DNA of 64,000 nucleotides from Dehalococcoidia bacterium. GTDB taxonomy: Bacteria; Chloroflexota; Dehalococcoidia; SHYD01; SHYC01. The position numbers and the translations under genes were made by a program. The DNA lies in NCBI GenBank assembly GCA_009693005.1, contig SHYC01000001.1, positions 3,580 through 67,579 of the forward strand. Direction: 5' to 3'. The first letter of the stretch is position 1. The number at the start of each line of letters is the position of its first letter. The notes under the pieces were generated by a model. It had not been told where the DNA came from. It did no database searches and was given only the letters and a program-made list of their open reading frames with translations. Shown in pieces: positions 1-52,315 of the stretch.

Positions 1-477
1 TTCGTTGGCAAGGCGGACGTCCATCAACCATTCAGGCGGCACGCCGTAGCTCAGAAGAGCTGCTTCAGATAATCCGGCGAAAAGCGCGGGCTTCGGCGGT
101 GCTGGCTGTTCCACCTCGACATACTTTGGGATAACAATCTCTTCAACCCGCTCTCGAATCTCCACCAGCTGTGCCGCACCGGTTTTTGGATGCGTTTCCA
201 GCTTACGCCGGTCCGCCCACTGGTAGGCCGCATCGTGGTGACCGGCATAACAGAGTAACAGGCTGGCTTCGGTACGATGTACTATCAGTCGGAGGTCACT
301 GCTGACGCGCACGGACCAGAAATTCTTGTCCTTAGCGTTGTCAATTCTATGGAAGTTCATTCCGGGGTTGGCCGCGTTGAGCTGTAGGTCAAAGGCAGTC
401 GTCTTGACGGCCTTCTGTTCCTCGCCGGTCAACCTGGTAAGGCTATCGGTGAAAGTGTCCGCGATGAGAAAGTCCAT
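1..477 (-). CDS. Hypothetical protein, 5' portion only. ATG at 477, and the ORF runs past the window start. Residues 40-90 weakly resemble a RelE/ParE-fold toxin. Co-directional with, and 8 nt downstream of, the Mod-like gene.
   Basis: Manual reverse-strand translation gives an uninterrupted 159-codon reading frame from ATG 475-477 to position 1 (MDFLIADTFTDSLTRLTGEEQKAVKTTAFDLQLNAANPGMNFHRIDNAKDKNFWSVRVSSDLRLIVHRTEASLLLCYAGHHDAAYQW...). A GGAG lies about 10 nt upstream. It is absent from the ORF track only because it has no stop inside the window. Confidence 0.45.
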   Translation of the reverse strand, partial: MDFLIADTFTDSLTRLTGEEQKAVKTTAFDLQLNAANPGMNFHRIDNAKDKNFWSVRVSSDLRLIVHRTEASLLLCYAGHHDAAYQWADRRKLETHPKTGAAQLVEIRERVEEIVIPKYVEVEQPAPPKPALFAGLSEAALLSYGVPPEWLMDVRLANE

Positions 478-484
478 CGATGGT

Positions 485-1378
485 CTACTCCACCCGGAAC
501 ACCTTCATTACCTCGTCGCCGAGATGATTGATCACCTTGACCGCGATCCGTCCCGAGGCGGGCTTGTCGAAGGGCCGGGAGGTGTCGCTGTTCAGCGTGG
601 CCCAGGCTTCCTCGTTGATTTCCGCCTTCAGGGTAGTCTTAAGCGCGCTATAGGGATCGTTTGCACCCAGGAAGTAGGCGTGGCGGACGAAGAAGCTCTC
701 CTCGTTGTAGTCGGTGTCGATGAACCAGCAGGCGATGCCGTCCGCGCCGTCGCTGCGGACTTCGCCGGTGTTGGGGTGGAACACGTCCACGCCATTGACC
801 TTCACCCGCACCTGACCGTCGTAAGTAGGCAAGAGCGTGATGTCCGGCTCGCCGAAGATGACAAACAGGTTGCCCTTGCCGGTGTTCTTGAGGTCACCGG
901 CCATGTGCAGATCAGCGTTCATCCGTGCCTTGAGAACGGGGACGCGACCGAGTTTTGCGAACTCTGTAGTGTGGGCCTCGTAGTTGAAAGCGCAAGCGAT
1001 TAATACGTCGAACCCGGAGTCGCCGGCTTCTCTTGCCGCCTGCACCAGGTCTGGTCGGGTGACGGTTCCGAACTCCGGGCCGATGAAGATGGCGGCGCGC
1101 TTTTCGACGCCCGCTTCGGCTTCGATGTACCTGCCTTCCGCGCAGACCAGATCGCCCGGCCAGGGGGTGAGCGAGCTAAAGGTGATCTTATCGTCCTTAT
1201 GGGCCTGCTGGACACCTGAGGTCTTCAAATTCTCTAGGATCATTTGGGGAAAGGTCTGCCGCGAATCGTAGCCGGGGCCTGTTTCCGCAAGACCGTCAAT
1301 CAGTTCGCCATCCTCGTCCACCCCAAGCACTCGGTGGGGCGACAGGCTCTCGACGGTGAAGGGCCCGGCCACCCGCAC
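485..1378 (-). CDS. C-terminal ~300 aa continuation of the Type III Mod-like methyltransferase. It is in the same reading frame as ORF 1421..3292 and separated from it only by an in-frame TAG plus 14 sense codons. It is either the distal part of a nonsense-disrupted ~935 aa methyltransferase or a separate downstream protein.
   Basis: Frame continuity was checked by hand: ...SIAAKA-TAG-FEHLYDKPYSDNKK-VRVAGPFTVE.... There is no ATG start (the track starts it at GTG). The sequence ends ...GRIAVKVINHLGDEVMKVFRVE. Confidence 0.5.
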   Translation of the reverse strand: MRVAGPFTVESLSPHRVLGVDEDGELIDGLAETGPGYDSRQTFPQMILENLKTSGVQQAHKDDKITFSSLTPWPGDLVCAEGRYIEAEAGVEKRAAIFIGPEFGTVTRPDLVQAAREAGDSGFDVLIACAFNYEAHTTEFAKLGRVPVLKARMNADLHMAGDLKNTGKGNLFVIFGEPDITLLPTYDGQVRVKVNGVDVFHPNTGEVRSDGADGIACWFIDTDYNEESFFVRHAYFLGANDPYSALKTTLKAEINEEAWATLNSDTSRPFDKPASGRIAVKVINHLGDEVMKVFRVE

Positions 1379-1420
1379 CTTCTTATTATCTGAGTAGGGC
1401 TTATCGTACAGGTGTTCAAA

Positions 1421-3292
1421 CTAGGCCTTGGCGGCGATGGAGGCGTCGATCTCTTTCTGCCGGGCGCTGCGAGCGAACCACCAATCCGCATGGAGCTTCT
1501 TCGCTGATTCCGGCCACGACGGCTCGGCTTTTCTTGGAATCTCCCATTCTTCCCAGGATTTTTTCAGAGCAATGTTCAGCTTCTGTCGCAACGGGTCCAG
1601 CGTTTCCTGCCAGTTGTCCCAGATGACATCAATCTCTACGTTAGCAGTGATAGATTTCAACATAATGTGGGGGACCCGGTCGTACACGAAGCCTTGGCGC
1701 ACGTTGTTGTGAACCGTCTGCGAGGAGGGTGTGTTGCGCATAATCTCTGCCTCTTTGATCTGACCTTCACGTGAATCAGCAAGCAAGTAATATGGATACC
1801 GCGCGCCCATGATACGAGCACGAGCGAGTGCCAGCGCGACACGGGAGGTATCGATAGTGATCCACCGGCGTCCCCATTGCTCTGCGACAAAAGCGGTTGT
1901 CCCTGCGCCACAGGTAGGGTCTAGAACCAAGTCCCCCGGATCAGTCGCCATCATGATGCATTTCTGTACTTGGCGGGTTGACGTTTGAACCACATATATC
2001 TTTTCATACGAGGTGCTCGCCGAACCCGAGTCGGTCCAAATGTTGCTCATAGTGGACAACGGGTTGTCCTCATGGAACGCCACTAAGTAGGGTAGCGTTC
2101 CGTGTAGGACCAGGCGATCGGCTTTGATTAGGGTGTTCATGCCATCCTGATTCGTTCGCCAGCTCTTCTTGTTCCTATGGATATGCGTTCCTTGAAGCTC
2201 AAAATCGAACATACAAGTCGGGGTGTATCCAGAGGATAGCATCCCTTGCGGAGAATACAGCTTCCACTCTCTTGGAAGAGATTCGAGATTGTCTAATTCT
2301 TCCCTAGCAAGCTTTCGGCGCTCGCCACTCGGAAGTTCAGCGTAGTCATAGCGAGATTCAGATCCCTTTGCTTTCATGTCGAATATCGGTCGGAACTTGA
2401 TGCTGCCTTTGGACTTTGCATACCAGATGACGTAGTCCGTAACGTTGGCCATTCCGCCGGTTCCCAGTGGCGACAGCTTCTTTAGAGTGATTAGCGAAAA
2501 GAAGTTCTGATCACCAAAAATCTCGTCCATAAGTGCGCGGATACGATGAACGTTTTCATCACCGATCTGAACGAATATCGATCCGGATTCAGCCAGCAGA
2601 TCGCGAGCGACTGTTAAGCGATCTCTTAGGTACGTCAGATAGGAGTGAACTCCATCCCGCCAGGTGTCTCGGAACGCCTTCACTTGTTCGGGCTCCCGCG
2701 TGATATGTTCGGCATTCCCATCTTTCACATCGCGGCTTGTTGTAGACCACTGGAAGTTGGAGTCAAACCTGATGCCGTAGGGCGGGTCCATATAGATACA
2801 CTGCACCTTGCTGCGCAGTCCTTCCCGCTCCGCCAGGCTGGCCATAACTTGCAGGGAGTCGCCTAGGATCATGCGGTTGGACCAGTTCTGGTCGTGCTGG
2901 TAGAAGTCGGTCCTGTCAGCTCCTTCAGGCATACCGTTAAAGTCCCCAAACAAGTCTAGCTGGTCACCGTCTGCGGGCCCGCCTGCTTTGCTATGGCGCA
3001 GCAGGTCATCGATGAGCACCTTGGGATGCACCTTCTCCTGGATGTAGAGAGGTGGCGCGTGGACCACCAGATCGCTCCAGTCCTGCGCATCCTTGCCGCG
3101 CCACACAAGCTGCGGATCGAGATCGCGGTTGCGCCGCTCGTATGCCACCCGGACGGGATTCTCTTGATCCTTCTCGATAACAGACTGGTACTCCGCGGTC
3201 GGGATGTTCTTCCGCGTAGCCTCGTCGTGGACGAGGGTTTCAATGGATTTAGCGGTGTACTTTCTCGCTCTGGCTTTAGGACTACTAGCCAT
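1421..3292 (-). CDS. mod: Type III restriction-modification Mod subunit: beta-class N6-adenine DNA methyltransferase. Motif IV (DPPY) precedes motif I (VLDPTCGAGTT).
   Basis: 623 aa ORF. Motifs present: NRMILGDSLQVM, CIYMDPPYG and a C-terminal VLDPTCGAGTTAFVAEQWGRRWITID. A GAGGGA ribosome-binding site lies 11 nt after the res stop. The gene ends in TAG at 1421-1423. Confidence 0.85.
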   Translation of the reverse strand: MASSPKARARKYTAKSIETLVHDEATRKNIPTAEYQSVIEKDQENPVRVAYERRNRDLDPQLVWRGKDAQDWSDLVVHAPPLYIQEKVHPKVLIDDLLRHSKAGGPADGDQLDLFGDFNGMPEGADRTDFYQHDQNWSNRMILGDSLQVMASLAEREGLRSKVQCIYMDPPYGIRFDSNFQWSTTSRDVKDGNAEHITREPEQVKAFRDTWRDGVHSYLTYLRDRLTVARDLLAESGSIFVQIGDENVHRIRALMDEIFGDQNFFSLITLKKLSPLGTGGMANVTDYVIWYAKSKGSIKFRPIFDMKAKGSESRYDYAELPSGERRKLAREELDNLESLPREWKLYSPQGMLSSGYTPTCMFDFELQGTHIHRNKKSWRTNQDGMNTLIKADRLVLHGTLPYLVAFHEDNPLSTMSNIWTDSGSASTSYEKIYVVQTSTRQVQKCIMMATDPGDLVLDPTCGAGTTAFVAEQWGRRWITIDTSRVALALARARIMGARYPYYLLADSREGQIKEAEIMRNTPSSQTVHNNVRQGFVYDRVPHIMLKSITANVEIDVIWDNWQETLDPLRQKLNIALKKSWEEWEIPRKAEPSWPESAKKLHADWWFARSARQKEIDASIAAKA

Positions 3293-3303
3293 ACCTGTCC
3301 CTC

Positions 3304-5130
3304 TTAAGCCACCGGCTGCGCTGCGACGGCTTCGATGATCTTATTGAACTCGCCTTCCACCTTGGCCTCGAAATCGGCCTCGATCTGATAGACTTCGGTT
3401 AACTCGGCGAAGGCCCAACGGCCCTGGGCGCCCAGATGGTTCACACCTGGTACCCAGTAGGTATCCATGGTAGCCTTCTTCTCCTTCGCATCTTCCCGGC
3501 GATAGCCCTTGATTTCAACAATCAGGTGCAGGAGGTCGTCATCACCGTGACCGTCATCCACCAGCACGATGAAATCGGGAAGATACTTGCGCGTCTCTGA
3601 GCCAAAGCGATACGGAACCTCTAGTCCGAGCCCTTGATTCTTCACGTAGGCTCTAACACGGGGATGGGCCTCAGCGACCCGGCAGAATTCGGCTTCCCAA
3701 TCGCTGTCCAGGACGACCCAGTTGAGATGGCAGCGCCGCGGATCGGTCTGCCAACGGCGCTTCTTCGATGTGTTGAAGTTGACGTGCATTGTAGAGCCAA
3801 CGGGATTGTAAGGGTCGGGGAGTGCTTTGATGGGGCGTTCGCCCACCAACGCTCGGGTGATGCCAGCGGTGATCCGTTCGCAGGCTATGTCGGCCAATTC
3901 CTGGTACATGAGCTGGGCGGGGTAGCTGCCTCCTTTGCAGAGGAGGCAGCTGTCTAGCCAGTCTTTGGTGATGCGTTTTAGCTGACCGAACAAGTGGAGC
4001 TTGGGTTCTTCTCCAGGGTCGCGCCATTTGGTGTAGAGCAAGCGCTTGGTAACGTGGAAGAGCAGTGTAGAAGGCCGCATGTCTTCAAGGTGTTCCAGAT
4101 TCAGATCAACTTCTTCTCCGATGATACCAGCGTTCCTAGTGATGGATGGGCCAACAAGATCAGGAGTGAGTTCCAAGATTGAGTCAGCGTTGAACTCGGC
4201 TCTCAGACGCTCCTCCGGCAATTCCACGCGATAGCCTTCAACGCGCGGGAAGCGGATTTCGAGTGCATCACGCTCGGGCCGGACAGCCCTGACCTGAATA
4301 GTCTGGCGGGGCGGCTGCGGCGGCGCAACAACGGGTTTGGCCGTAAAGTCAAACGGGATGCCCAGCACGTCCGCATATTCAACGTTGAAGAGACCTTCAT
4401 CCGGACCTTCCTCGATCAAGTCGTAAGACTGGCGCCGCAAGGCCCGGCCAATGACTTGTTCGCAGAGAAGCTGGGTCCCGAAGGCGCGTACTCCCAACAC
4501 GTGGGTGACGGTGTTAGTATCCCAACCTTCGGTGAGCATGGAGACCGATACTACGCAGCGGATAGATTCGCCCAACCGATCGGGCTTGCCGACGGTGTTC
4601 ATGACCTCCCGCAGTAGGTCATTGTCTGTGATATTATCGGCCTGCCGCGGATCGCCGGTTCGTTCTACGATCTCACGGCGGAACCGTTCTATCTCATCGG
4701 CTGCCATGGCGCGGAAGTTATCGTCCAGCGCTTCGCCGGATTCGAGCTGCGCGCTATCTATCAGCAGCGTATTCGGTCGGGCGAAGGGGTTGCCGTACTC
4801 ATCGAAGTTGCGGAACAGCTCAAGCCGGCCATTTACCAGGGTGGTTGAAGCATCTTCGTTCTGCCGGGTGAAGCCCGAAACGTAATCGTAAACTAGCTTG
4901 GATATGGAGGTATTCTGACAAACTATTATGAAGCAAGGCGGGACAATAATACCGCTCGCCTGCCATAGGTCAAATGTCTTCCTATAATGCCCATAGAGCG
5001 CTTCCAAAGCTGTCTGGAGCTCAACGGGCAGGCCTGAGCGGGTCAAGCGGCCCTGAGTTGATGCGGTTCTTCTTTGGCATCCGGGTCCGAATATGCTCCC
5101 ACAGATTGCGGAATCGGGGCATTTGTCCAC
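3304..5130 (-). CDS. res: Type III-like restriction endonuclease Res subunit, distal fragment: helicase C-terminal domain (motif VI QVIGRALRR) plus a C-terminal PD-(D/E)xK nuclease (PDFIV...VEIKG). It is out of frame with the upstream fragment.
   Basis: 608 aa ORF that overlaps ORF 5021..6376 in a different frame. The TAA stop is 11 nt upstream of the mod start. Confidence 0.75.
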   Translation of the reverse strand: MDKCPDSAICGSIFGPGCQRRTASTQGRLTRSGLPVELQTALEALYGHYRKTFDLWQASGIIVPPCFIIVCQNTSISKLVYDYVSGFTRQNEDASTTLVNGRLELFRNFDEYGNPFARPNTLLIDSAQLESGEALDDNFRAMAADEIERFRREIVERTGDPRQADNITDNDLLREVMNTVGKPDRLGESIRCVVSVSMLTEGWDTNTVTHVLGVRAFGTQLLCEQVIGRALRRQSYDLIEEGPDEGLFNVEYADVLGIPFDFTAKPVVAPPQPPRQTIQVRAVRPERDALEIRFPRVEGYRVELPEERLRAEFNADSILELTPDLVGPSITRNAGIIGEEVDLNLEHLEDMRPSTLLFHVTKRLLYTKWRDPGEEPKLHLFGQLKRITKDWLDSCLLCKGGSYPAQLMYQELADIACERITAGITRALVGERPIKALPDPYNPVGSTMHVNFNTSKKRRWQTDPRRCHLNWVVLDSDWEAEFCRVAEAHPRVRAYVKNQGLGLEVPYRFGSETRKYLPDFIVLVDDGHGDDDLLHLIVEIKGYRREDAKEKKATMDTYWVPGVNHLGAQGRWAFAELTEVYQIEADFEAKVEGEFNKIIEAVAAQPVA

Positions 5131-6376
5131 CGGGAATATTATCGGCTATGGGGACCCGCGGCAGTTTGACGATGCCGCACTCAATTGCGTCCATCAATGA
5201 AAAATCGCTCATCGTCCAGGGGAACAGCGTCCCTTCTGCGTAACCGGAACCCCGCAAGAAGAAAGGAGTGGCTGATAGGTCGATGACATGAGCGATTCCC
5301 AGCTTGCGGTTAACCATCTCTAATCCCGAAAGCCAAAGACGGGCGGCCTTGTTGTTCTCTTCAGCCTCCTTCTTGTCCTCGCCTTTCAGAATTTCCACCT
5401 CTTCGGCTCCGGGCTTCGCTCGATAGCAATGGTGCGCTTCATCGTTTATCACAAGGATGTTCTTTATACCCATTAGCTCGGGCATGACTCGCTGGATCAT
5501 CTGCCCTTCGGTCTCTAACGTGTTGAGCGCGTCTCCACGGCCCTGGAGCAGGGAACGACCGCCTCGGGAAAGTTCCATGCGGTCGCGGAGTCGGAAAGCA
5601 TGGTAGTTCGTGATGACGATCTTGGCTTTGTCCAGATCGCTCAGCATGTCGTTTGGCACCAGCTGCAGGGTTCGATAGTAGCTGTCCGGATCGTTGGGCT
5701 TGAGCACCCGCAGGCGGTCTCGAATCGTCAGGCCTGGGGTCACCATAAGGAAACCACGGGTGAACTTACTGCTGTTAGGCCGACGGACTGCGTTAATAGT
5801 CTGCCAGGCGATCATCATCGCCATAACCGCTGTTTTGCCGGAACCAGTGGCCATTTTCAACGCGATACGCAGCAAACCAGGGTTTGCGTCGTTGCTTGCG
5901 TTTGCGATGTGGTCAAGGAAAATGCGCCCGTCACGGCCGAGGTCCGGCGCAACTTCAGTCAGCCAAATGGCCGTTTCAACAGCTTCCACCTGGCAAAAGA
6001 AGGGCCGAAAGCTGTTGAACGAATATTGCCGCCAGTGCTGAAGCAAACGAGCGGTTTCCGGCGTGACGTGCCAGTCATTAGGATTGGGTATCGTACGCCA
6101 TTGGTCTACCCGGCGGCGCACCTCGTTAATGATTGCGGTGGCCTGATATTGCTGTTCAGCTGTGGAGAGACCTTTGCCTTCATCAAAAACGAATTGCGGC
6201 TGGTTTGCCGCAGTCCTGCGCTTTCGAGGTAGAGGAATCGGCGTGATGAACTCCGCAATGCGGCGACTTTCTGCCATCTTGCCAGTTGGTTGTCCTTCCG
6301 TGTCGAGTTCCCAATGACGGGAAGGATACGTGTACGGCGCGTTGATGATTGGATGGTCGAAGAACTGGTCACTCAT
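5021..6376 (-). CDS. res: Type III-like restriction endonuclease Res subunit, proximal fragment: SF2 helicase motifs I (ATGSGKT), II (DEAHH) and III (SAT). Frameshifted relative to 3304..5130.
   Basis: 451 aa ORF with ATG at 6374-6376. It carries Walker A and the DEAH box, and ends ...NSGPLDPLRPAR inside the overlap with the downstream fragment. Confidence 0.75.
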   Translation of the reverse strand: MSDQFFDHPIINAPYTYPSRHWELDTEGQPTGKMAESRRIAEFITPIPLPRKRRTAANQPQFVFDEGKGLSTAEQQYQATAIINEVRRRVDQWRTIPNPNDWHVTPETARLLQHWRQYSFNSFRPFFCQVEAVETAIWLTEVAPDLGRDGRIFLDHIANASNDANPGLLRIALKMATGSGKTAVMAMMIAWQTINAVRRPNSSKFTRGFLMVTPGLTIRDRLRVLKPNDPDSYYRTLQLVPNDMLSDLDKAKIVITNYHAFRLRDRMELSRGGRSLLQGRGDALNTLETEGQMIQRVMPELMGIKNILVINDEAHHCYRAKPGAEEVEILKGEDKKEAEENNKAARLWLSGLEMVNRKLGIAHVIDLSATPFFLRGSGYAEGTLFPWTMSDFSLMDAIECGIVKLPRVPIADNIPGGQMPRFRNLWEHIRTRMPKKNRINSGPLDPLRPAR

Positions 6377-6419
6377 GCTTCACCGTTTTCGGTCGGGCCC
6401 AATCGCCTCTCACAATCAC

Positions 6420-6650
6420 TATTGCAATATCGTGGCTCCGGTCGACGTGACTTAATGTCCCACAAATAGAACATGGAGATGACTTCATTATAACGGAGAA
6501 TCGCCCTGAACAAGACCACAGCCCTCTTGCCAAATTCTACAGCAAGCAAGTGGGATCAGGCAATGTACGTCTTCCTCGCCGAGAAGCGGCGGCGCTCCGG
6601 CTCCGACCGTACCGTACAAGGCTACAGGGGTTCATGCGCATCGCCGCATC
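6420..6650 (+). repeat. Direct repeat copy 1: a degenerate 5' fragment of a tyrosine recombinase (integrase) gene with its upstream leader. About 85-90 percent identical to 7845-8132.
   Basis: Aligned by eye: cgacgtgacttaatgtcccacaaatagaacatggagatgacttcattataacggagaatcgccctgaacaagaccacagccctcttgcc... matches the second copy. Copy 1 has lost the GTG start and has a weaker ribosome-binding site. Confidence 0.6.
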
Positions 6651-6802
6651 CAATATAATGGAGCGCCATTTGACTGATGGTGAGGAGCGTAATTGAACGC
6701 ATATATGTGATCATACACTATGCTCTTGCCGCTGCCCTGGTTGTGCCAGATGATGCCACCTTTCTTCTCTTCGAACAGCTGGTTGTCTTCCCACACCAAT
6801 AC

Positions 6803-7333
6803 TCATGACTCATCCCTTGGTCTGAAGCCAAGTCTACGCCTCGGTTGCGTTGGCGGCACCATCAGTTGGCGGATCGCGTCGAAGACTGCCTTAAACTGCT
6901 CGTCGTAGCGCTCCTCTATCTCGTCGAGCCGGCGCGCTAGGTCTCGGTTAGACGCCAGCATCTCGCGCAGACGCACGAAAGCGCGCATGATCTCAATGTT
7001 GACCTGCACTGCGCGCTGGCTGCGCAGGACGCTGGAGAGCATTGATACGCCTTGCTCAGTGAAGGCGTAAGGCGGGTACCGGCGTCCGCCCCGGCCTGGG
7101 TTGTTTGAGGTCACAAATTGTGACCTCAAACGGTCAAACTCCTCTTTGGTGAGCCGAAACATGAAGTCCTCTGGGAATCGCGCTTTGTTGCGCCCAACAG
7201 CCTGTACCAAGACCTTCGTCTCGACACCGTACAACTCCGCGAGGTCGGAGTCCAGCATCACCTTCTCGCCGCGGATAAGAAGAATCGAGCGCTCTATGCG
7301 CTCTGCCGGTACGAGACTTCGGTTATCTGCCAA
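6803..7333 (-). CDS. ORF6N (KilA-N-like) domain protein
   Basis: 176 aa. Shows the characteristic ORF6N N-terminus ([46 protein letters not shown]). The first in-frame start is TTG. Confidence 0.7.
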
Positions 7334-7431
7334 CGCCCAACTCCTGGAGGTTGCTTCGGATGGCTGGATATAGTACCGTCACGATGTTAGCTCCACTCCC
7401 CGCTGCTTAAAGTCGCGCAGCGCGCCGGCGT

Positions 7432-7749
7432 TCACGGTCGCTCATAGACTGTGACGCCTTCGCTTAATGCCGGCTTCAATATGGTACCGGGGAGATCGCC
7501 GCGGCGGGTAATCTCCTCAGGCGTGGTTACGATCACATCTTTTGGGGCTGGCATGTCAGCGAGGGCGCGCAGCATGGCGAGGGTCATCTGCATGCGATCT
7601 GTGCCGTCCGGCATGACCACCAGGAGATCGTAGTCGCTGTCCCATCGCACGTCTCCGCGAGCGCGCAAGCCAAACAGTATTATACGAATGGGCTGAAAAC
7701 CCTCTACCAGACGCTGTACCATGATAGAGAGAACATCGGTGGTTGTCAT
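7432..7749 (-). CDS. Minimal nucleotidyltransferase (MNT) family protein with a GxRxRGDxxxDSDYDLLV motif. No cognate HEPN partner is adjacent.
   Basis: LFGLRARGDVRWDSDYDLLVV motif. The start is set at the ATG preceded by GGAGGAATAAG (MTTTDVLSIMVQ...). The ORF track extends it 28 codons upstream, which I think is spurious. Confidence 0.7.
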   Translation of the reverse strand: MTTTDVLSIMVQRLVEGFQPIRIILFGLRARGDVRWDSDYDLLVVMPDGTDRMQMTLAMLRALADMPAPKDVIVTTPEEITRRGDLPGTILKPALSEGVTVYERP

Positions 7750-7934
7750 CTTATTCCTCCAAATTAAAGCGCATGCGTACAGTTGCCAGTTGGTCGGCTC
7801 TAATAAGATATTCTCCATCACATCACCGCCCATCGACGGGATTCACCATTGCGCAACATCGTGTTGCCCATCGACTTGACTTAAGCGTCCGTGAATGGAA
7901 TATGGTGATGACTTAATTAGTAAGGAGAATCACC

Positions 7935-8132
7935 GTGAACAAGACCACAGCCCTCTTGCCAAAGTCTACAGCAGACAGGTGGGATCAGACAATGTATGCG
8001 TTTCTCGCCGAGAAGCAGCGGCGCTCCGGGTCGGACCGCACCGTGCAAGGGTACTCCGGAATGCTGCGCTATATCCTTGGGACCATGGGCAGGACTCCCG
8101 ACAAGATCTCGTCTCTCCACGGGTTTGATTGA
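7935..8132 (+). pseudogene. Truncated 5' fragment (about 65 codons) of a tyrosine recombinase/integrase gene; second copy of the direct repeat. AAGGAG ribosome-binding site plus a GTG start. The fragment stops 40 nt before the 3' end of nuoN.
   Basis: MNKTTALLPKSTADRWDQTMYAFLAEKQRRSGSDRTVQGYSGMLRYIL resembles the N-terminal core-binding (SAM-like) domain of XerC/D-type integrases. No catalytic domain follows. Confidence 0.5.
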
Positions 8133-8175
8133 TTGATTTTCCTGTATACTCACTCCGTTCAGAATGAAGTTACAA

Positions 8176-9618
8176 CTACGATAAGCCCAACACCCGCACT
8201 GCACCCTCTACCGCAGTTACCACCGGGGCCGGATAGACGCCAATCAGGATAACTGCCGCTAACAGCACGATCAAAGTCCCAACGGTCAGCGCAGGCATAG
8301 GAAGCCTGCTCATATCCTGCGGCTGGGATATATACATCTGCCTGACCACCTGTATGTAATAGTAAAGAGAGATGAGGCTGTTTGTCACGGCTATAGCCAC
8401 CAGCCATAGAAGGCCGCTATTGGCAGCGGCGGTGAACAGATAGAATTTGGTGACAAAACCAGCGAAAAACGGCAGCCCGGCCAGTGAAAATAGGGCAATG
8501 GTCATAGACAACGCCAAAAATGGCGCTCTTTCTGCAAGGCCCGCGTAATCACTAATTTCGTCCTTCCCGGTAAGATTAAAGTAAGCCGTAGCGCACATGA
8601 AAGCCACGAGATTGCTAGCGCCGTAGCCTGCCACATGAAGAAGTACCGCGCTTGCGGTGAAAGAGTTTAGCGCCACAAGCCCAATCAATAGATAGCCTAC
8701 CTGGGATATACTTGAGTAGGCCAACAGTCTCATCATATTGTGCTGCTGTATGGCTACCAGATTTCCTATGGTCATCGACACTACCGCGATAACTGCCACA
8801 ACAATACCCCACTCCGCCGCAACAGGAGCGAGAGCGCCGGAGAAAAATCTCAGTAACAGCGCGAAGCCTGCGGCCTTCGAGGCTACGGATATGAGGGCGG
8901 TTACGGGTATCGGAGCGCCCTCGTAGACGTCTGGAGTCCACATGTGGAAGGGGACCGCAGCCACTTTGAAACCCAGGCCGGCAGTTATAAGGACCAGCGC
9001 CATAACAAGCCCGCCACTCAGTCCATTGGTCGTTATTAATGTCTCCAACGCCTGCGCAATTCCCACGTAAGAAGTTGTCCCGGCAATGCCGTATAAAAAG
9101 CTGAAGCCATACAGCAGCAGCGCCGAGGCAAACGCGCTGAGGATTATATACTTAAGGCCAGCCTCGTTGGACTTAGGATTGTCTCGAGCGTATGAAACCA
9201 GCACGTAAAGACAAAAGTTCAACAGCTCCAGCGATATATACGCGGTGATTATCTCTCCGGCCTCGGCCATCCCGATCATTGCCAGAGTAGCGAATAGGAT
9301 TAGGCTATAATACTCACCCGGATACCTAAGCCTCTGGTGAACAAAGTCCACAGACATCAATACCACGCTAAGTGACATAAGCGGGAACAGGATACGAAAG
9401 AAGGTAGTGTAGTCGTCTACAATGACCATGCCATTGTAGAGGAAGCCCTGTATATCAGAGCCAGACACAGAGATAACTACAGCCAGGACCAATACCAAAG
9501 CGGTAATGGCGGCAAGAGCCCTCTTGCTTTCCCGCGGCAGGAAGAGGTCACCCACCAGCACAACAAATGCTGAGATAGCCAAAAAGAGCTCCGGAGTGAT
9601 GAGAGATAGATTAATCAT
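8176..9618 (-). CDS. nuoN: NADH-quinone oxidoreductase subunit N
   Basis: 480 aa polytopic membrane protein with the NuoN/ND2 pattern. It overlaps nuoM by 4 nt. The stop is TAG. Confidence 0.9.
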   Translation of the reverse strand: MINLSLITPELFLAISAFVVLVGDLFLPRESKRALAAITALVLVLAVVISVSGSDIQGFLYNGMVIVDDYTTFFRILFPLMSLSVVLMSVDFVHQRLRYPGEYYSLILFATLAMIGMAEAGEIITAYISLELLNFCLYVLVSYARDNPKSNEAGLKYIILSAFASALLLYGFSFLYGIAGTTSYVGIAQALETLITTNGLSGGLVMALVLITAGLGFKVAAVPFHMWTPDVYEGAPIPVTALISVASKAAGFALLLRFFSGALAPVAAEWGIVVAVIAVVSMTIGNLVAIQQHNMMRLLAYSSISQVGYLLIGLVALNSFTASAVLLHVAGYGASNLVAFMCATAYFNLTGKDEISDYAGLAERAPFLALSMTIALFSLAGLPFFAGFVTKFYLFTAAANSGLLWLVAIAVTNSLISLYYYIQVVRQMYISQPQDMSRLPMPALTVGTLIVLLAAVILIGVYPAPVVTAVEGAVRVLGLS

Positions 9619-11111
9619 CCTGCGCCTGCTGCAAGGCCGATTCTTAGGATAAGAGGCGCGACGCCGCTGTTAATAACGGCCATCACGGGGCTGGGGTAAA
9701 GTCCAATAAAGAGCAAAGTAAAGACCAGGATAGCCATTCCGATTCCCTGTATCAGTGGGGCATCCTGCATCTGCGACCAGCGTTCATTCAGAGGACCAAA
9801 AAATACCGTTGCTATAAGCCTCAGGATATATACCGCAGTTATCGCAGCGCCTATCACTCCCAAGACGCCAAAGACAGGATATTTCTCGAACGTAGCAACG
9901 AATATCAGGAACTCGGCCACAAAGCCGCTGAAGCCGGGCAAGCCCAAAGAGGTAAGCCCGGCTACAGCAAAAAAAGCGGCTACCACACCCATACGCCTGG
10001 CCAGGCCACCAAACACAGCTATCTCCCTGGTATGGGCCTGGTCATAGATGACGCCGACCGCGGCGAAAAAGAGGGCCGTCATGATGCCGTGGGAAAACAT
10101 CTGGAGGACTGCGGCGCTGAGGCCGATGGGCAAAAGAGTAGCCATCCCCATTAACACATATCCCATGTGGCTGACGCTGGAATACCCGATAACGTATTTC
10201 AGGTCCTTCTGCCCCAACGCTGAGATCGCGCCATATATCACGTTGACAGTGGCCAGGACTATCAGCAGAGGCATCCAGGTGACAGCGCCCTGGGGCAGGA
10301 GGAGTATCCCAACCCGTATTATTCCATAAGCCCCAAGTTTCATTAGAACGCCGGCGTGCAGCATGCTTACCGCCGTAGGTGCAGCCACGTGACCATCCGG
10401 CGACCAGGTGTGGAAGGGCCAGAGGCCGGCAAGGACCCCAAAGCCTATTAAGATCAGCGGAAAGAAGAAATTCTGAAATTCCGTGGGGAAGGACACTTCT
10501 TGAAGGATAAGGATATCGAAGCTGCCGGTACCGGATTGAACGTACATAGCTAAGAGCGCCAGCCATACAGGGACGCTTCCGGCTACCAAGTATATAGTAA
10601 GCTTAAGGGCGCCGTACTCCTTGGTGCGTGCGAAGTTTCCAAAGTCACTGCTGCTGCCCCATATTCCTATGAGAGGATACATAGGGATGACGGCAAGCTC
10701 ATAAAAGAAGAAGAAGAAGAAAAGGTCTAAAGACTCAAATGTGCCATATACGCCCGCAACGAGGAAAAACAGAAGAATGAAATAGTCCTTCGCGCGATAG
10801 CTCGTCTTCCAGGAGATCAGGACGGCAGAAAAGATGACTATCCCGGTAAGGAGCACCATAGGAGAGGAGATGCCATCTACGCCGAGGTGTAGGGAGACTC
10901 CAAGCTGAGGCAGCCACTTGTAACGCTCTTCCAGTTGGTAACCGGGCAGCGAGGGGTTAAAGATCAGGAACTGATACAACGACAGAGCCAGGCTGCAAAA
11001 CGCGGTCAGTAGAGCCGTCCGCTTAATAGCTCGGTCCCAGGTGGATGGCATAGCCATTATCGCCAATGCGCCAAGGACGGGCAAGAAAATGGTTAGAGAG
11101 AGGATAGGCAC
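9615..11111 (-). CDS. nuoM: NADH-quinone oxidoreductase subunit M
   Basis: 498 aa, NuoM/ND4 family (WLPQLGVSLHLGVDGISSPMVLLT...). Confidence 0.9.
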   Translation of the reverse strand: MPILSLTIFLPVLGALAIMAMPSTWDRAIKRTALLTAFCSLALSLYQFLIFNPSLPGYQLEERYKWLPQLGVSLHLGVDGISSPMVLLTGIVIFSAVLISWKTSYRAKDYFILLFFLVAGVYGTFESLDLFFFFFFYELAVIPMYPLIGIWGSSSDFGNFARTKEYGALKLTIYLVAGSVPVWLALLAMYVQSGTGSFDILILQEVSFPTEFQNFFFPLILIGFGVLAGLWPFHTWSPDGHVAAPTAVSMLHAGVLMKLGAYGIIRVGILLLPQGAVTWMPLLIVLATVNVIYGAISALGQKDLKYVIGYSSVSHMGYVLMGMATLLPIGLSAAVLQMFSHGIMTALFFAAVGVIYDQAHTREIAVFGGLARRMGVVAAFFAVAGLTSLGLPGFSGFVAEFLIFVATFEKYPVFGVLGVIGAAITAVYILRLIATVFFGPLNERWSQMQDAPLIQGIGMAILVFTLLFIGLYPSPVMAVINSGVAPLILRIGLAAGAG

Positions 11112-23199: not shown

Positions 23200-23571
23200 A
23201 TGAGACCTTCACGCGCTTTGACAGCTAACCTGCAATTTAATATAGACTACGAGAACAAAGAGTCTGTACAAGAACTGTTGGGCGGCGCAGGACAAACAGT
23301 CTTGGACCAGGTCCTGCACCTCGCCAACACTGTAAGCAAAAAACGCGGCTGGCCGCTGACCAAGGTACGGCTTCAGCGCTACAAAGATTATGAGCTGCCG
23401 AGCTGGGGATACATTCTGGTCATAATTGTCTTCGACTGTACATTTGAGGTTGCAGATGAATACCTGCATGAGTTCTATAAACACTCGGACAATTTGACCA
23501 GCCAACTGGACGGAAAAGAGAAAGAAGCAATCTATAGGCTTTTATCCTTTGACATCGAGAGCACGGCCTAG
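23200..23571 (+). CDS. Hypothetical small protein, A1 copy of a tandemly duplicated A-B module
   Basis: 123 aa (NLQFNIDYENKESVQELLG...KKRGWPLTKVRLQRYKDYELP...). Roughly 85 percent identical to 23794..24177. Confidence 0.5.
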   Translation: MRPSRALTANLQFNIDYENKESVQELLGGAGQTVLDQVLHLANTVSKKRGWPLTKVRLQRYKDYELPSWGYILVIIVFDCTFEVADEYLHEFYKHSDNLTSQLDGKEKEAIYRLLSFDIESTA

Positions 23572-23818
23572 CGTTCCACCTATAGACCCTAGAGATTACT
23601 TAGACTTAGCAAAGAGACTCGCCGCTCAATCGGACGTGGCATCGGTACGCACCGCTGCCGACAGAGCCTATTATGCGGCCTTTCTCTTTAGCACAGATCA
23701 ATGCCGCTCCTTCCCCATCTGCTTGCAAACTCTGGTCCCACGTGGAGCATTTGTCGAGTGGAATGGAAAAATACCTTATGATAGAATGCAGCCATGGGAC
23801 CTTCACGCTCTTCTATAA
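23549..23818 (+). pseudogene. Truncated HEPN-like gene, B1 copy. Only the first ~55 codons match B2; the remainder is read-through into the duplication junction.
   Basis: DPRDYLDLAKRLAAQSDVASVRTAADRAYYAAFLFS matches B2, then the sequence diverges into the start region of the next A copy. Confidence 0.4.
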
Positions 23819-24177
23819 CTAACCTGCAATTCAACATAGACTACGAGAACAAAGAGTCTATACAAGAACTGTTAGGAGACGTAGGGCAAACAGTCTTGGA
23901 CAAGGTCCTGCGCTTCGCTGAGGCTCTCAGCAAAAAACGCGGCTGGCCGCTCACCAAGGTGCGACTTCAGCGCTACACAGATTATGAGCTGCCTGGCCGG
24001 GAATACATTCTGGTAATAATGGTTTTTGATTGTACCTTTGATACCGCAGATAAATACCTTCATGAGTTTTGCAACAAGTTAGATCTACTAAGCAAAAAAA
24101 TGAGCGACGACGACCAGGTTGTGCTGAGGAGGCTCATCTTCTTTGACATCGCAACAACTGAGTTTCTCAAGGGTTGA
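23794..24177 (+). CDS. Hypothetical small protein, A2 copy
   Basis: 127 aa paralogue of 23200..23571. Confidence 0.5.
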   Translation: MGPSRSSITNLQFNIDYENKESIQELLGDVGQTVLDKVLRFAEALSKKRGWPLTKVRLQRYTDYELPGREYILVIMVFDCTFDTADKYLHEFCNKLDLLSKKMSDDDQVVLRRLIFFDIATTEFLKG

Positions 24178-50169: not shown

Positions 50170-50823
50170 ATGGATAAGCAGGTTGTCTCCAAGCAGCGGG
50201 TTACCGATCATGGCGAGGTGTTGACCGGAAGGCGGGAGGTCAACGCCATGCTGGATTTGGTGAAGTCCGAGACCGAACGGATAGACGCGCGTTTCCTCGA
50301 ACCCGCCTGTGGGACCGGCAACTTCCTGGCCGAAATCCTCGAACGCAAGCTCCGCGTGGTCGAGACGCGCTACAGGAAGAGCCGACTTGAGTTCGAACGC
50401 TATGCCATTCTCGCCGTCTCATCCATCTACGGCATCGACAAACTCGAAGACAACGTCCAGCAGTGTCGCCAGCGGCTCTTCGGGAAATTCGATATAAGCT
50501 ACACGCGCTTGTTCAAAGGCAAGTCAAGCGACGGCTGCCGTGAATCCGTGCGCTTCATTCTTGAACGGAATATCATTCACGGCGACGCCCTTTCCCTCAC
50601 AACCGAGGGCTACAACCCGAGGCCGATTGCTTTCTCCGAATGGTCGCCGGTCAATGGCAGCATGCTGAAGCGGCGGGACTTCACCTTCCACGAGTTGCTC
50701 GAGCATGAAGCACTCAAGGAACCACGCGTTTCCGATCTCGGCAAGAAGGTTTTCATCCCGACGCCGCAGAAGGAATACCCGCCTACCCATTTCTTGAGGG
50801 TGGCAGATGTTGTCGAGCAGTAA
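50170..50823 (+). CDS. Short, degenerate N6-adenine-methyltransferase-like protein. It keeps motif X and motif I (FLEPACGTGNFL) but has NPRP in place of NPPY and no target-recognition domain. It is a paralogue of the N-terminal half of the downstream methyltransferase.
   Basis: 217 aa. Hand-aligned to the downstream gene: EVLTGRREVNAMLDLV/EVFTPPQLVNRILDLL and FLEPACGTGNFLAEIL/FLDPGCKSGVFLREIA. Its stop lies 17 nt after the ATG of the next gene. Confidence 0.6.
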   Translation: MDKQVVSKQRVTDHGEVLTGRREVNAMLDLVKSETERIDARFLEPACGTGNFLAEILERKLRVVETRYRKSRLEFERYAILAVSSIYGIDKLEDNVQQCRQRLFGKFDISYTRLFKGKSSDGCRESVRFILERNIIHGDALSLTTEGYNPRPIAFSEWSPVNGSMLKRRDFTFHELLEHEALKEPRVSDLGKKVFIPTPQKEYPPTHFLRVADVVEQ

Positions 50824-52111
50824 CTACAACCCGGACGTGCTCACCTGCATTGCCAACCTGAGCAGTGACGAAGTCTTCACGCCCCCGCAACTGGTGAACC
50901 GGATTCTAGACCTGCTGCCGGAGGACCTCTGGAGAGACAAGAAGGCCACGTTCCTCGATCCCGGCTGCAAGTCGGGCGTGTTCCTGCGCGAGATCGCCAA
51001 GCGCCTCGACAGGGGACTCGAACAGCAATTCCCCGACCGCCAGAAGCGGATGAACCACATCTTCCAGAACCAGCTCTTCGGACTCGCCATCACAGAATTG
51101 ACCGCCCTGCTTTCGCGCCGGTCCGTGTATTGCTCCAAGACGGCCAACGGTAAGTATTCCGTCTGCGAGGCGTTCGACAACCCTGAAGGTAACATCCGTT
51201 TCGGGCGCGTGGAACACGCCTGGGAGAACGGCCGTTGCCGGTACTGCGGGGCCAACGAGGAGAACTACAAGCGTGGCGGCGAACTGGAAAGCCACGCCTA
51301 CGATTTCATTCACACCGACAAGCCGGAGAGAATCTTCAACATGAAATTCGACGTTATCATCGGCAATCCGCCCTACCAGTTGAGCGATGGGGGGTTTGGG
51401 CGAAGCGCATCACCCATCTATCAGAACTTCGTTCAGCAGGCACAAAAGCTAAACCCGCGATTCCTGACCATGATCATTCCCTCGCGATGGTTCGCCGGTG
51501 GCAAGGGATTGAACGATTTTCGAGCCGAAATGCTCGGCGACGACAGAATCCGAAGGATTGTGGACTACGAAGACGCCTCCGAAGTATTTCCGGGCGTGGA
51601 TATAGCGGGGGGAATTTGCTACTTCCTTTGGGAGCGCGACTCCCGCGGTCCATGCGAAGTTACCAATGTTCACAACGAGGAGCGCGTGGTTTCGGTACGG
51701 CCTCTCAACGAGTTTCCAAGGTTGATTAGGCATAGCGAAGCAGTCCCAATCATTCGTAAGGTGTTGGCGAACAAAGAAGCCCGAATGAGCGAGCAAGTGA
51801 CAAGCAGGAAACCATTCGGTCTCGCAACAAATATCCGCCCACTGAAGTCCGGCGACATTACTCTTCGCTGGCAGAATGGAGATGGCCCTTACGAACGTAA
51901 GGACATTAAAGTTGGAGTTGAGATAATCGACCTCTGGAAAACTATTACATCCTACGTTGGCTACGACCATGCGGGAAGCCCCGGCAGCGACGGCCGCCGC
52001 CGGATATTTTCAAAGATCGACATCCTACCTCCTAAGACAATCTGCACAGAGACTTACCTTGTGGTCGGCGCATTTAAGGAGAGAGCGCAAGCCGAGAATC
52101 TGGCCCGGTAA
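50807..52111 (+). CDS. Gamma-class N6-adenine DNA methyltransferase of the Eco57I/TaqI family. Motif I LDPGCKSG and motif IV IIGNPPYQ are present. A four-cysteine insert (C-x10-C-x24-C-x2-C) sits between motifs I and IV. The gene ends at an in-frame TAA, and 67 more in-frame codons follow.
   Basis: 434 aa ORF. The start overlaps the upstream gene. The C-terminal region resembles a TaqI-like specificity domain. Confidence 0.8.
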   Translation: MLSSSNYNPDVLTCIANLSSDEVFTPPQLVNRILDLLPEDLWRDKKATFLDPGCKSGVFLREIAKRLDRGLEQQFPDRQKRMNHIFQNQLFGLAITELTALLSRRSVYCSKTANGKYSVCEAFDNPEGNIRFGRVEHAWENGRCRYCGANEENYKRGGELESHAYDFIHTDKPERIFNMKFDVIIGNPPYQLSDGGFGRSASPIYQNFVQQAQKLNPRFLTMIIPSRWFAGGKGLNDFRAEMLGDDRIRRIVDYEDASEVFPGVDIAGGICYFLWERDSRGPCEVTNVHNEERVVSVRPLNEFPRLIRHSEAVPIIRKVLANKEARMSEQVTSRKPFGLATNIRPLKSGDITLRWQNGDGPYERKDIKVGVEIIDLWKTITSYVGYDHAGSPGSDGRRRIFSKIDILPPKTICTETYLVVGAFKERAQAENLAR

Positions 52112-52315
52112 ATGAAAACGCGCTTCTTCAGATTCCTCGTTGCGCAATTCATGTATTCGCATCACATCACGAAAGATTCGTACGCGTTTGTCCCCATCAT
52201 TGACATGGGTTTTGCCTGGACAGACGAAACGCTCTACAAGCGCTACGGACTGACGAAGGACGAAATCGCCTTCATCGAGTCGAAGATCCGCCCGATGGAG
52301 GCGAAGGGTGAGTAA
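52112..52315 (+). CDS. 67-codon ORF in the same frame as, and contiguous with, the methyltransferase stop. It is probably the methyltransferase C-terminus, separated from it by a nonsense codon. Its 3' end overlaps the helicase GTG start.
   Basis: ...AENLAR-TAA-MKTRFFRFLVAQF...YGLTKDEIAFIESKIRPMEAKGE. Same frame as 50807..52111, confirmed by coordinate arithmetic. A GGAGG for the next gene lies inside it. Confidence 0.5.
   Translation: MKTRFFRFLVAQFMYSHHITKDSYAFVPIIDMGFAWTDETLYKRYGLTKDEIAFIESKIRPMEAKGE

Follow-up and report, generated by a model that had tools for sequence, protein, structure and literature searches.

A probably inactivated copy of a widespread Type III-like restriction-modification module in a Dehalococcoidia metagenome-assembled genome

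Positions 1 to 6376 of the window (the whole 64,000-nucleotide stretch of DNA that was analysed) very likely hold, on the minus strand, a copy, inactivated by mutation, of a widespread Type III-like restriction-modification module of three genes. It resides in a metagenome-assembled genome (MAG) of a member of Dehalococcoidia. The locus is an ordinary, recently inactivated member of an already catalogued family, the BPTD_3080 type, and its correct annotation is two pseudogenes of such a system plus a helicase gene, not four genes or a recoded gene. The initial annotation, made from the sequence alone, had described a Type III-like res/mod operon with both genes disrupted; domain matches and alignments with homologues support this description, and all of the minus-strand open reading frames (ORFs) that it delimited were confirmed.

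The res and mod pseudogenes and the third gene

The first gene (3304..6376, minus strand) is a pseudogene of a BPTD_3080-family restriction endonuclease, as identified with the NCBIfam profile NF046055 and Pfam. It consists of two overlapping minus-strand ORFs in different frames, one at 5021..6376 (451 aa, Pfam domain ResIII) and the other at 3304..5130 (608 aa, Pfam domain RE_endonuc). On NF046055, the NCBIfam equivalog "BPTD_3080 family restriction endonuclease" with a curated cut-off of 800 bits, the N-terminal ORF covers model positions 1-423 and the C-terminal one positions 424-969, and the scores of the two as encoded (628 and 713 bits) each fall below the cut-off. A profile search with a fused Res translation, one of the checks suggested in the initial annotation, exceeded it: with base 5033 deleted, a 1023-aa Res is obtained that contains no further stop and scores 1355 bits, covering positions 1-969 of the 970 in the model. 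An intact member of the family would have a single reading frame of about 1020 aa, whereas that of the window is split at 5031-5034; a 1022-aa homologue is 74% and 81% identical to the two ORFs, respectively.

The lesion itself is one extra base (a +1 insertion) within GGCC at 5031..5034 (minus strand), as mapped by DNA and protein alignment with the related loci L001 and L003, and the frameshift postulated initially from the overlapping ORFs is thus real. In the alignment with homologues, the frame changes from 0 after ...GPLDPL to +1 at LPVELQT..., with the window reading CTCAGGCCTGCC and L001 reading CTGAGCCTGCC, and removal of one base restores DPLSLPVELQ, the homologues having DPLSLPVRLQ. 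The Res pieces together retain the motifs GSGKT (5831-5845), DEAH (5432-5443), PD (3574-3579) and EIK (3508-3516), which, along with the ResIII and RE_endonuc domains, point to the architecture of a superfamily 2 (SF2) helicase-like ATPase that ends in a PD-(D/E)xK nuclease at the C-terminus; the same set, i.e. Walker A, DEAH and a C-terminal PD...EIK motif, has been described for Type III Res proteins (PMC8259958). The PADLOC REase_III models match Res weakly (E=4e-5), and a search of PDB sequences with Res returned no chain at E<=1, whether the query was one sequence or a family profile. The window Res deviates at 8 of 356 near-invariant columns, the mean for homologues being 3.4, an excess that is not significant, as eight or more such changes are also found in 4 of 60 intact homologues.

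The second gene (485..3292, minus strand), which starts 11 nt past the Res stop on the same strand, is recognised by homologues and profiles as a pseudogene of a beta-class N6/N4 DNA methyltransferase of the Type III kind, about 935 aa long. Its pieces are an ORF at 1421..3292 (623 aa, Pfam domain N6_N4_Mtase) and an ORF at 485..1378 that follows in the same frame after the TAG at 1421..1423 (minus strand). This TAG occupies codon 624, replacing a conserved Glu or Asp, and beyond it the frame stays open for 311 sense codons. The best-scoring 120 homologues listed are all continuous (913-1104 aa, 68-82% identity), and the "300-aa continuation" of the initial annotation can for this reason be regarded as Mod's own C-terminal domain; the same homologues run counter to the refuting condition set at the outset, that the 623-aa and 297-aa products are always encoded by separate genes. 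One of 931 aa spans the TAG in alignment at 82% identity. Homologues read AKA-E/D-FEYLYDKPY at this position, and the corresponding codons in the related loci compared are GAG (32), GAC (18), GAT (8), GAA (7) and others (2), i.e. Glu or Asp codons at 65 of 67 matched sites; a single G-to-T change converts GAG to TAG. An exact-pattern scan of JGI metagenome contigs gave 0 matches; the pattern had N in place of the TAG so that an unbroken allele from this lineage would be caught. The comparison with loci in related genomes, likewise suggested initially, finds homologues intact at both lesion positions. Since homologues align across both lesions at high identity, these are best interpreted as true gene disruptions and not chance ORF patterns.

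The catalytic part of Mod is easily recognised. The motif DPPY (2777-2788, aa 169-172) precedes DPTCGAGTT (1895-1921, aa 458-466), and the order of motif IV before motif I with the target-recognition domain in between is that of the beta class. The family profile matches the Mod proteins of EcoP15I (4zcf_A, E=1.3e-21) and Helicobacter pylori (6k0w_B, E=2.6e-22) over positions 120-464, and the PADLOC model MTase_III PDLC03632 fits a homologue of the window Mod along its full length (1475 bits). The C-terminal domain, about 310 aa long, is specific to the family and ranks among the best-conserved parts of Mod, with many invariant columns; it matches positions 479-743 of 743 of PHROG 67 ("DNA methyltransferase"), and a family profile search of structures found no solved relative of it. 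For an intact Mod homologue, AlphaFold2 with 40 sequences of 71-86% identity gave a model too poor for fold searching, with a mean pLDDT of 53.9 and a pTM of 0.31. Of 349 near-invariant columns, the window Mod deviates at 1, against a mean of 3.4 for homologues, and the TAG aside it bears no sign of relaxed constraint, a pattern that would also fit an erroneous base.

The operon continues with an ORF running from 477 to 1 (1..477, minus strand), which is cut by the edge of the window. The initial annotation was right that a partial open frame exists here, and did not recognise it as the N-terminus of a UvrD-like helicase: its 159 codons encode a sequence 77% identical to residues 1-159 of a 690-aa UvrD-family protein encoded downstream of Mod in L001, PHROG 1967 ("DNA helicase") matches it, and a full 690-aa gene with UvrD Pfam domains is present on a second (ENA) assembly. 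The N-terminal region of the helicase resembles a RelE/HigB toxin, the HigB-like match being weak (E=0.025). An Rfam scan of positions 1-9000 gave no match, and promoter and terminator scans performed no better than chance.

Nature and consequences of the two lesions

By homology, the Mod subunit of the intact module would methylate a short DNA motif that it recognises, and unmethylated DNA would be cut by Res in an ATP-dependent manner, a mechanism that we infer from EcoP15I-type enzymes, for Res at the level of motifs and Pfam domains only. The one-nucleotide insertion splits Res between the two helicase lobes, and restriction would presumably be lost as a result, whereas the GAG-to-TAG change would truncate Mod after residue 623 and remove the conserved C-terminal domain. 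The two lesions, the family membership and the conserved gene order are directly observed, whereas the inactivation and the sequence of events are, like the mechanism, deduced. Res was probably lost before Mod, as suggested by its more numerous changes at near-invariant sites, and the Mod stop looks very recent. The locus has little significance beyond annotation, being one more instance of the usual fate of a horizontally acquired restriction system, with R apparently lost before M.

It is conceivable, if unlikely, that only restriction is dead and that methylation survives, with the 623-aa Mod acting as an orphan methyltransferase, unaided or assisted by a 295-aa C-terminal piece that is translated on its own. 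The fragment keeps the whole catalytic core and the target-recognition region, both DPPY and the AdoMet motif precede the stop, the EcoP15I-like region ends near aa 464, and 623 aa is a canonical size for a Type III Mod (the EcoP15I Mod chain has 644 aa). The 311 codons downstream of the TAG are intact, gene calling yields a 295-aa ORF among them, and this ORF has a GTG start at 1372 behind the Shine-Dalgarno-like string AAGAAGGTG, with CAGATAATAAGAAGGTGCGGGTGG preceding it; moreover, among BPTD_3080-type loci it is more common for R to be lost and M retained. However, the Shine-Dalgarno-like string is simply made up of the conserved KKV codons, and the high conservation of the C-terminal domain implies that this domain is necessary. 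Rather improbable, too, is the notion that the organism has intact res and mod genes and that the two lesions are errors of sequencing, assembly or consensus calling, or minority alleles in the MAG. The source is indeed a metagenome-assembled genome, each lesion concerns one nucleotide, the rest of Mod is conserved to the same degree as in any intact homologue, and the AGGCCT common to both lesions (see below) could indicate a systematic error tied to sequence context. On the other hand, an ENA assembly, in which the locus lies on an 11,139-bp contig with boundaries other than those of the 72,890-bp NCBI contig, has the same split ORFs (451, 580, 623 and 295 aa), although both assemblies may go back to one set of reads. 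Over 5739-7409, a span that stops short of both lesions, the window is 100% identical to a Logan single-run contig, ten housekeeping-type ORFs checked within the window are full length, and there is no long homopolymer at the frameshift. With about 15% of related Res genes genuinely broken in other genomes, a real pseudogene is the simpler prior.

The frames of both genes remain open past the lesions, which invites an explanation in terms of regulated expression, with a programmed +1 frameshift in res, a TAG in mod that is read through or reassigned, or else reversible phase variation, as known from Type III systems of some pathogens (PMC1976455). This we consider hardly credible. Phase variability, one of the alternatives offered in the initial annotation, finds no substrate here: positions 1-8200 contain no tandem or simple-sequence repeat, and the only homopolymer of at least 6 bases in the operon is a T6 at 1559-1564, away from both lesions, the Res lesion lying in the context CTCAGGCCTGCC. 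At CTC AGG CCT, no slippery or hungry-codon arrangement that would re-pair in the +1 frame can be recognised, and none of 59 intact Res and 77 intact Mod genes has the lesions of the window, so that a recoding site is not conserved. The other initial proposal, a Mod of about 935 aa whose expression needs nonsense suppression, was correct as to the ancestral protein and not as to suppression: no other terminator is as common in the window as TAG, in which 20 of 40 long ORFs end, and the only tRNA found there is tRNA-Met, with no suppressor tRNA. Phase variation and nonsense suppression are therefore both unsupported, given the lack of repeats at the lesions, the use of TAG as a normal terminator and the lack of conservation of the lesions. 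Elsewhere in the window, we also considered two same-frame ORF pairs as candidate cases of TAG reassignment (16921-18138/18148-19506 and 43181-43825/43826-44806), which proved to be separate genes with their own starts and domains, and a methyltransferase pair (50170-50823 and 50807-52111) as a candidate frameshifted gene, in which each member has its own AdoMet-binding motif and the second its own start.

Decay, the remaining one of the initially proposed alternatives, fits the lesions as mapped against intact homologues, and one oddity accompanies it. Both lesions create the palindrome AGGCCT, a hexamer with an approximately two-fold depletion in the window. The chance of two lesions sharing a palindromic hexamer is about 1e-4, and two independent random mutations would not be expected to do so. 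It seems very improbable, all the same, that the lesions were produced not by independent mutations but by a sequence-directed process (for instance a mutagenic or repair function linked to a host system specific for AGGCCT) or by a systematic context-specific error.

The BPTD_3080-type family and its known relatives

The module family occurs in at least 595 species-level genomes from many phyla, at about 70-80% identity. Its decay is common, as attested by related genes broken at positions other than those of the window lesions: Res is broken in 11-12 of about 71 full-length related genes (~15%; 59 intact) and Mod in 3 of 80 (~4%; 77 intact), with both genes broken in two related loci (L046 and L079). 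The order res before mod, which the initial annotation regarded as a reversed layout, is no anomaly; in each of 79 related loci Res precedes Mod, and the annotated plasmids p1NCPPB4222 of Pseudomonas avellanae and pAQ5 of Picosynechococcus PCC 7002 have the same layout, which is thus fixed in the BPTD_3080-type family. A UvrD-like gene lies downstream of Mod in 56 of 82 related loci. The window copy shares with other members the domain content, the repaired protein lengths, the res-mod-helicase order and the tight spacing, at 68-82% identity, and differs from them by the frameshift in res and the premature TAG in mod. In addition, many members carry cargo between res and mod (Fic, toxin-antitoxin pairs, DinD-like or ORF6N genes), whereas these two genes are adjacent in the window and an ORF6N gene is located upstream.

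Compared with EcoP1I and EcoP15I, which form Mod2Res1 complexes, the two-subunit logic is the same, and the window Mod is likewise of the beta class, with the same order of DPPY, target-recognition domain and AdoMet motif as in EcoP15I. The differences concern the gene order (res-mod as opposed to the classical mod-res), the extra C-terminal domain of about 310 aa in Mod, and the UvrD-like third gene usually added in the BPTD_3080 type. The order of mod followed by res is typical of Type III systems and lies outside their formal definition. A third helicase-type gene consistently accompanies a Type III-like pair also in the Eco86II/BspHIV group, in which the order is mod-res and the extra gene lies 5' of mod and encodes an ATPase of the SF2 class (Murray et al. 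2021, PMC8259958), whereas the extra gene of the window encodes a UvrD (SF1) helicase and is located 3' of mod. The literature searched, including that on res/mod order and on the Bordetella pertussis methylome, yielded no biochemical characterisation of any BPTD_3080-type member. Bpe564I of B. pertussis (AGCCGCC), listed as a putative m4C Type III system (PMC8259958), may be the BPTD_3080 system and offers a lead; were the two identical, the chemistry of the family would be known. With its fixed res-mod-UvrD order, variable cargo slots and long Mod, the family is more interesting than its copy in the window.

The surrounding defence island

The setting of the module is a small degraded defence island adjoining nuoN; among 82 related loci, there is none that is intact and orthologously placed beside nuoN. 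Upstream of Res lies an ORF6N/Rha-like gene (6803..7333, minus strand; Pfam ORF6N, E=2e-35; PADLOC PDC-S05), homologues of which are found between Res and Mod in L046 and L078. Genes of this kind are accessory genes typical of defence islands. The same island includes a gene for an antitoxin-type, MntA-like nucleotidyltransferase (7432..7833, minus strand; Pfam NTP_transf_2, with a weak match to NCBIfam MntA_antitoxin). A plus-strand ORF at 7935-8132 was considered as the N-terminus of a tyrosine recombinase and discarded, having no match in Pfam, PHROGs or a plasmid tblastn search. The borders of the locus are formed by a helicase-gene remnant and a duplicated truncated sequence. The remnant (6632..6799, minus strand), 55 aa of another helicase-type restriction subunit with motif I (GGIIWHNQGSGKS) only, is matched by Pfam SWI2_SNF2 (E=8e-6) and ResIII (E=0.012), and the gene calls of two other assemblies also include it, with a length of 54 aa.

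A probably degraded member of a known family

The minus-strand ORFs listed in the initial annotation for positions 1-6376 are all present in the window, namely two ORFs representing Res (5021..6376, 451 aa, Pfam ResIII; 3304..5130, 608 aa, Pfam RE_endonuc), the Mod ORF (1421..3292, 623 aa, Pfam N6_N4_Mtase), its 297-aa continuation (485..1378), and another open frame running from 477 to the window edge. The reading of these genes as a Type III-like, broken system is also correct, with full-length family matches after repair and a lesion in each gene. As a pseudogenised copy, the locus belongs to a family that NCBIfam and PADLOC already curate.

Intact Res homologues of 1022-1025 aa are encoded directly 5' of Mod in the related loci L001-L003, and these align to the window Res in one frame over residues 1-447 and in another over residues 430-1018. 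Aligned as DNA, the window (CTCAGGCCTGCC) is one base longer than L001 (CTGAGCCTGCC), which places the lesion within GGCC at 5031-5034. With one base removed, Res becomes a 1023-aa product with no further stop, reading ...GPLDPLSLPVELQ... as in the relatives, and matches positions 1-969 of the 970 of the NCBIfam model NF046055 (BPTD_3080 family restriction endonuclease) with 1355 bits (cut-off 800), the unrepaired ORFs covering positions 1-423 and 424-969. A Walker A motif (GSGKT), DEAH and a C-terminal PD...EIK were found in Res; a comparison with solved structures gave no match by sequence.

Beyond the TAG at 1421-1423, the frame of the 623-aa Mod ORF stays open for 311 further sense codons, to 485. 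When the conceptual 935-aa read-through product is used as the query, the best 120 Mod matches listed are all continuous proteins (913-1104 aa, 68-82% identity; query coverage 87-100%, and at least 98% in all but one), so the 297-aa ORF is not a separate gene. The matches span many phyla, including Smithella, Methylotenera, Pelotomaculum, Nitrospira and Pirellulaceae, and the closest intact Mod among those listed, from an unrelated MAG, is only 82% identical. The TAG is aligned to Glu/Asp within the strongly conserved block AKA-[E/D]-FEYLYDKPY..VRVAGPFTVESLSPHR; given the codons occupying this site in the fetched homologous loci (GAG 32, GAC 18, GAT 8, GAA 7), the simplest event is a single GAG-to-TAG change. 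What had been described as a 300-aa continuation is the C-terminal domain of Mod itself. The C-terminal part of Mod matches PHROG 67 ("DNA methyltransferase", positions 479-743), and a full-length homologue matches the PADLOC Type III methyltransferase model PDLC03632 end to end (1475 bits). Positions 120-464 of the Mod family profile align with EcoP15I Mod (4zcf_A, E=1e-21) and with the Mod of an H. pylori Type III system (6k0w_B, E=3e-22). The stop comes after both the catalytic DPPY (aa 169-172) and the AdoMet motif, DPTCGAGTT (aa 458-466); the domain lost by truncation is highly conserved in the family.

By homology with EcoP15I-type systems, in an intact module a Mod dimer would recognise a short asymmetric motif and methylate it on one strand, and an ATP-dependent Res would cut unmethylated DNA; we found no biochemical study of any BPTD_3080-type family member in the literature searched. 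The Res of the window, split between its helicase lobes, should be inactive. The truncated Mod would lose the C-terminal domain and retain the catalytic core and recognition region, and residual orphan methylation by it is possible; re-initiation at GTG 1372, behind AAGAAGGTG, might help such putative activity.

Gene order and cargo in related loci

The order of the two genes, initially considered unusual, turns out to be that of the family. In a comparison set of 82 related loci, mostly GTDB species representatives (a scan of which confirmed at least 595 relatives), all 79 loci that have both genes on the contig show Res 5' of Mod and on its strand, and a UvrD-like gene then follows in 56 of the 82. 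Annotations show this layout also on a Pseudomonas avellanae plasmid (BPTD_3080 endonuclease, 959-aa methyltransferase and 697-aa "3'-5' exonuclease") and on pAQ5 of Picosynechococcus PCC 7002, though the identity of the latter is only ~45%. Res-before-mod is therefore the normal family layout and implies no rearrangement. Over its first 159 residues, the 690-aa UvrD-family helicase encoded 3' of Mod in L001 shares 77% identity with the product of the frame 477..1, and a second public assembly of the locus carries the complete 690-aa helicase gene. The N-terminal ~90 aa of this helicase (window 1-477, minus strand; L001 14369-16441) show a weak RelE/HigB-toxin-like match (Pfam E=0.025).

In about half of the related loci, res and mod are separated by unrelated cargo of 0.7-2.2 kb (Fic-like, DinD-like, DUF1016-like, Schlafen-like or ORF6N; in pAQ5, a UPF0175/DUF3368 pair at 9112-9856), and further cargo occurs between mod and the helicase gene, such as the RT_UG14 reverse transcriptase of L001 (12962-14362). 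Type I RM operons have similar cargo slots.

Origin of the two lesions

The evidence says that the lesions are neither regulated nor programmed. The proposal of phase variation is not supported, as window positions 1-8200 contain no tandem or simple-sequence repeats, the sole homopolymer of at least six bases in the operon being T6 at 1559-1564. Nor are the lesions conserved. Mod is intact in 77 of 80 related genes and Res in 59 of ~71 full-length ones; the 11-12 broken Res genes differ in their break sites; that of L082, for example, falls in an A7 run, and L057 has lost a G ~30 codons 5' of the window's lesion. Nonsense suppression, also suggested before, is likewise not supported: more of the long non-overlapping ORFs in the window end in TAG than in any other stop codon (20 of 40, nuoN included), and the sole tRNA there is tRNA-Met. 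Other same-frame neighbour ORFs split by one stop were considered as recoded genes and are clearly separate genes.

When compared with the homologues, each of the two lesions gives rise to a palindromic AGGCCT (1423-1428 and 5030-5035), a hexamer that occurs only 10 times in the window versus 21 +/- 4.3 expected. Enumeration of every nonsense substitution in Mod combined with every 1-nt insertion in Res puts the chance of any hexamer common to both lesions at no more than 1.4%, and that of a palindromic one, a post-hoc figure, at ~1e-4. Deamination products include neither a G-to-T change nor an insertion. The sharing of AGGCCT is a post-hoc observation without a mechanism and stays unexplained. 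It is the main reason why we keep a small residual probability for a sequencing or assembly artefact, which we consider unlikely. Mod departs from near-invariant family columns at only 1 of 349 (homologue mean 3.4), so its stop looks either very recent or erroneous. Against an artefact, the ten housekeeping-type ORFs that were checked in other parts of the window are all full length, and the ENA assembly ERZ1305449 carries split ORFs of 451, 580, 623 and 295 aa on a contig of 11,139 bp, whose boundaries are unlike those of the window contig; two assemblies thus agree on the split ORFs. The NuoN of the window is MSQ14245.1, encoded on a 72,890-bp contig of a "Dehalococcoidia bacterium" MAG, and no NCBI record in the searched collection contains the split Mod and Res proteins. 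A Logan contig (run SRR8561391), 100% identical to 5739-7409, spans neither lesion.

Returning to genuine decay, Res departs from near-invariant columns at 8 of 356 (homologue mean 3.4, maximum 10; 4 of 60 homologues reach 8), which weakly suggests that it was released from selection earlier than Mod. This would be the usual order, since loss of M before R is lethal and restriction systems hence usually decay R first.

Surroundings of the operon

Directly 5' of Res, a 55-aa minus-strand ORF at 6632-6799 (Pfam SWI2_SNF2) retains helicase motif I only (GGIIWHNQGSGKS) and is apparently what is left of a second helicase-type restriction subunit after its deletion; further 5' come an ORF6N gene, an MntA-like nucleotidyltransferase gene and then nuoN. 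The ORF6N-MntA segment is bracketed by a direct repeat of ~215-240 bp (6400-6640 and 7825-8070; 82% identical according to blastn, with a mean column identity of 88% when aligned), each copy of which holds the first ~45 codons of one short plus-strand ORF (MNKTTALLPKSTADRWDQTMYAFLAEKQRRSGSDRTVQGY...). We suspected a recombinase N-terminus here, and no tool supported it. Taken together, this looks like a defence island that is small, was acquired horizontally and has degraded.

A second defence-like cluster lies on the plus strand at 50170-54845 and comprises a 217-aa MmeI_Mtase-like ORF, a 434-aa Eco57I-type methyltransferase and an 845-aa T5orf172 + ResIII helicase protein; although the first two overlap by 17 nt, they appear to be two genes rather than a single frameshifted one. 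Elsewhere on the plus strand, a pair of neighbouring small paralogous ORFs (23200-23571, 123 aa, and 23794-24177, 127 aa) share near-identical N-terminal halves (…NLQFNIDYENKES.QELLG…) and are followed by a 154-aa ORF.
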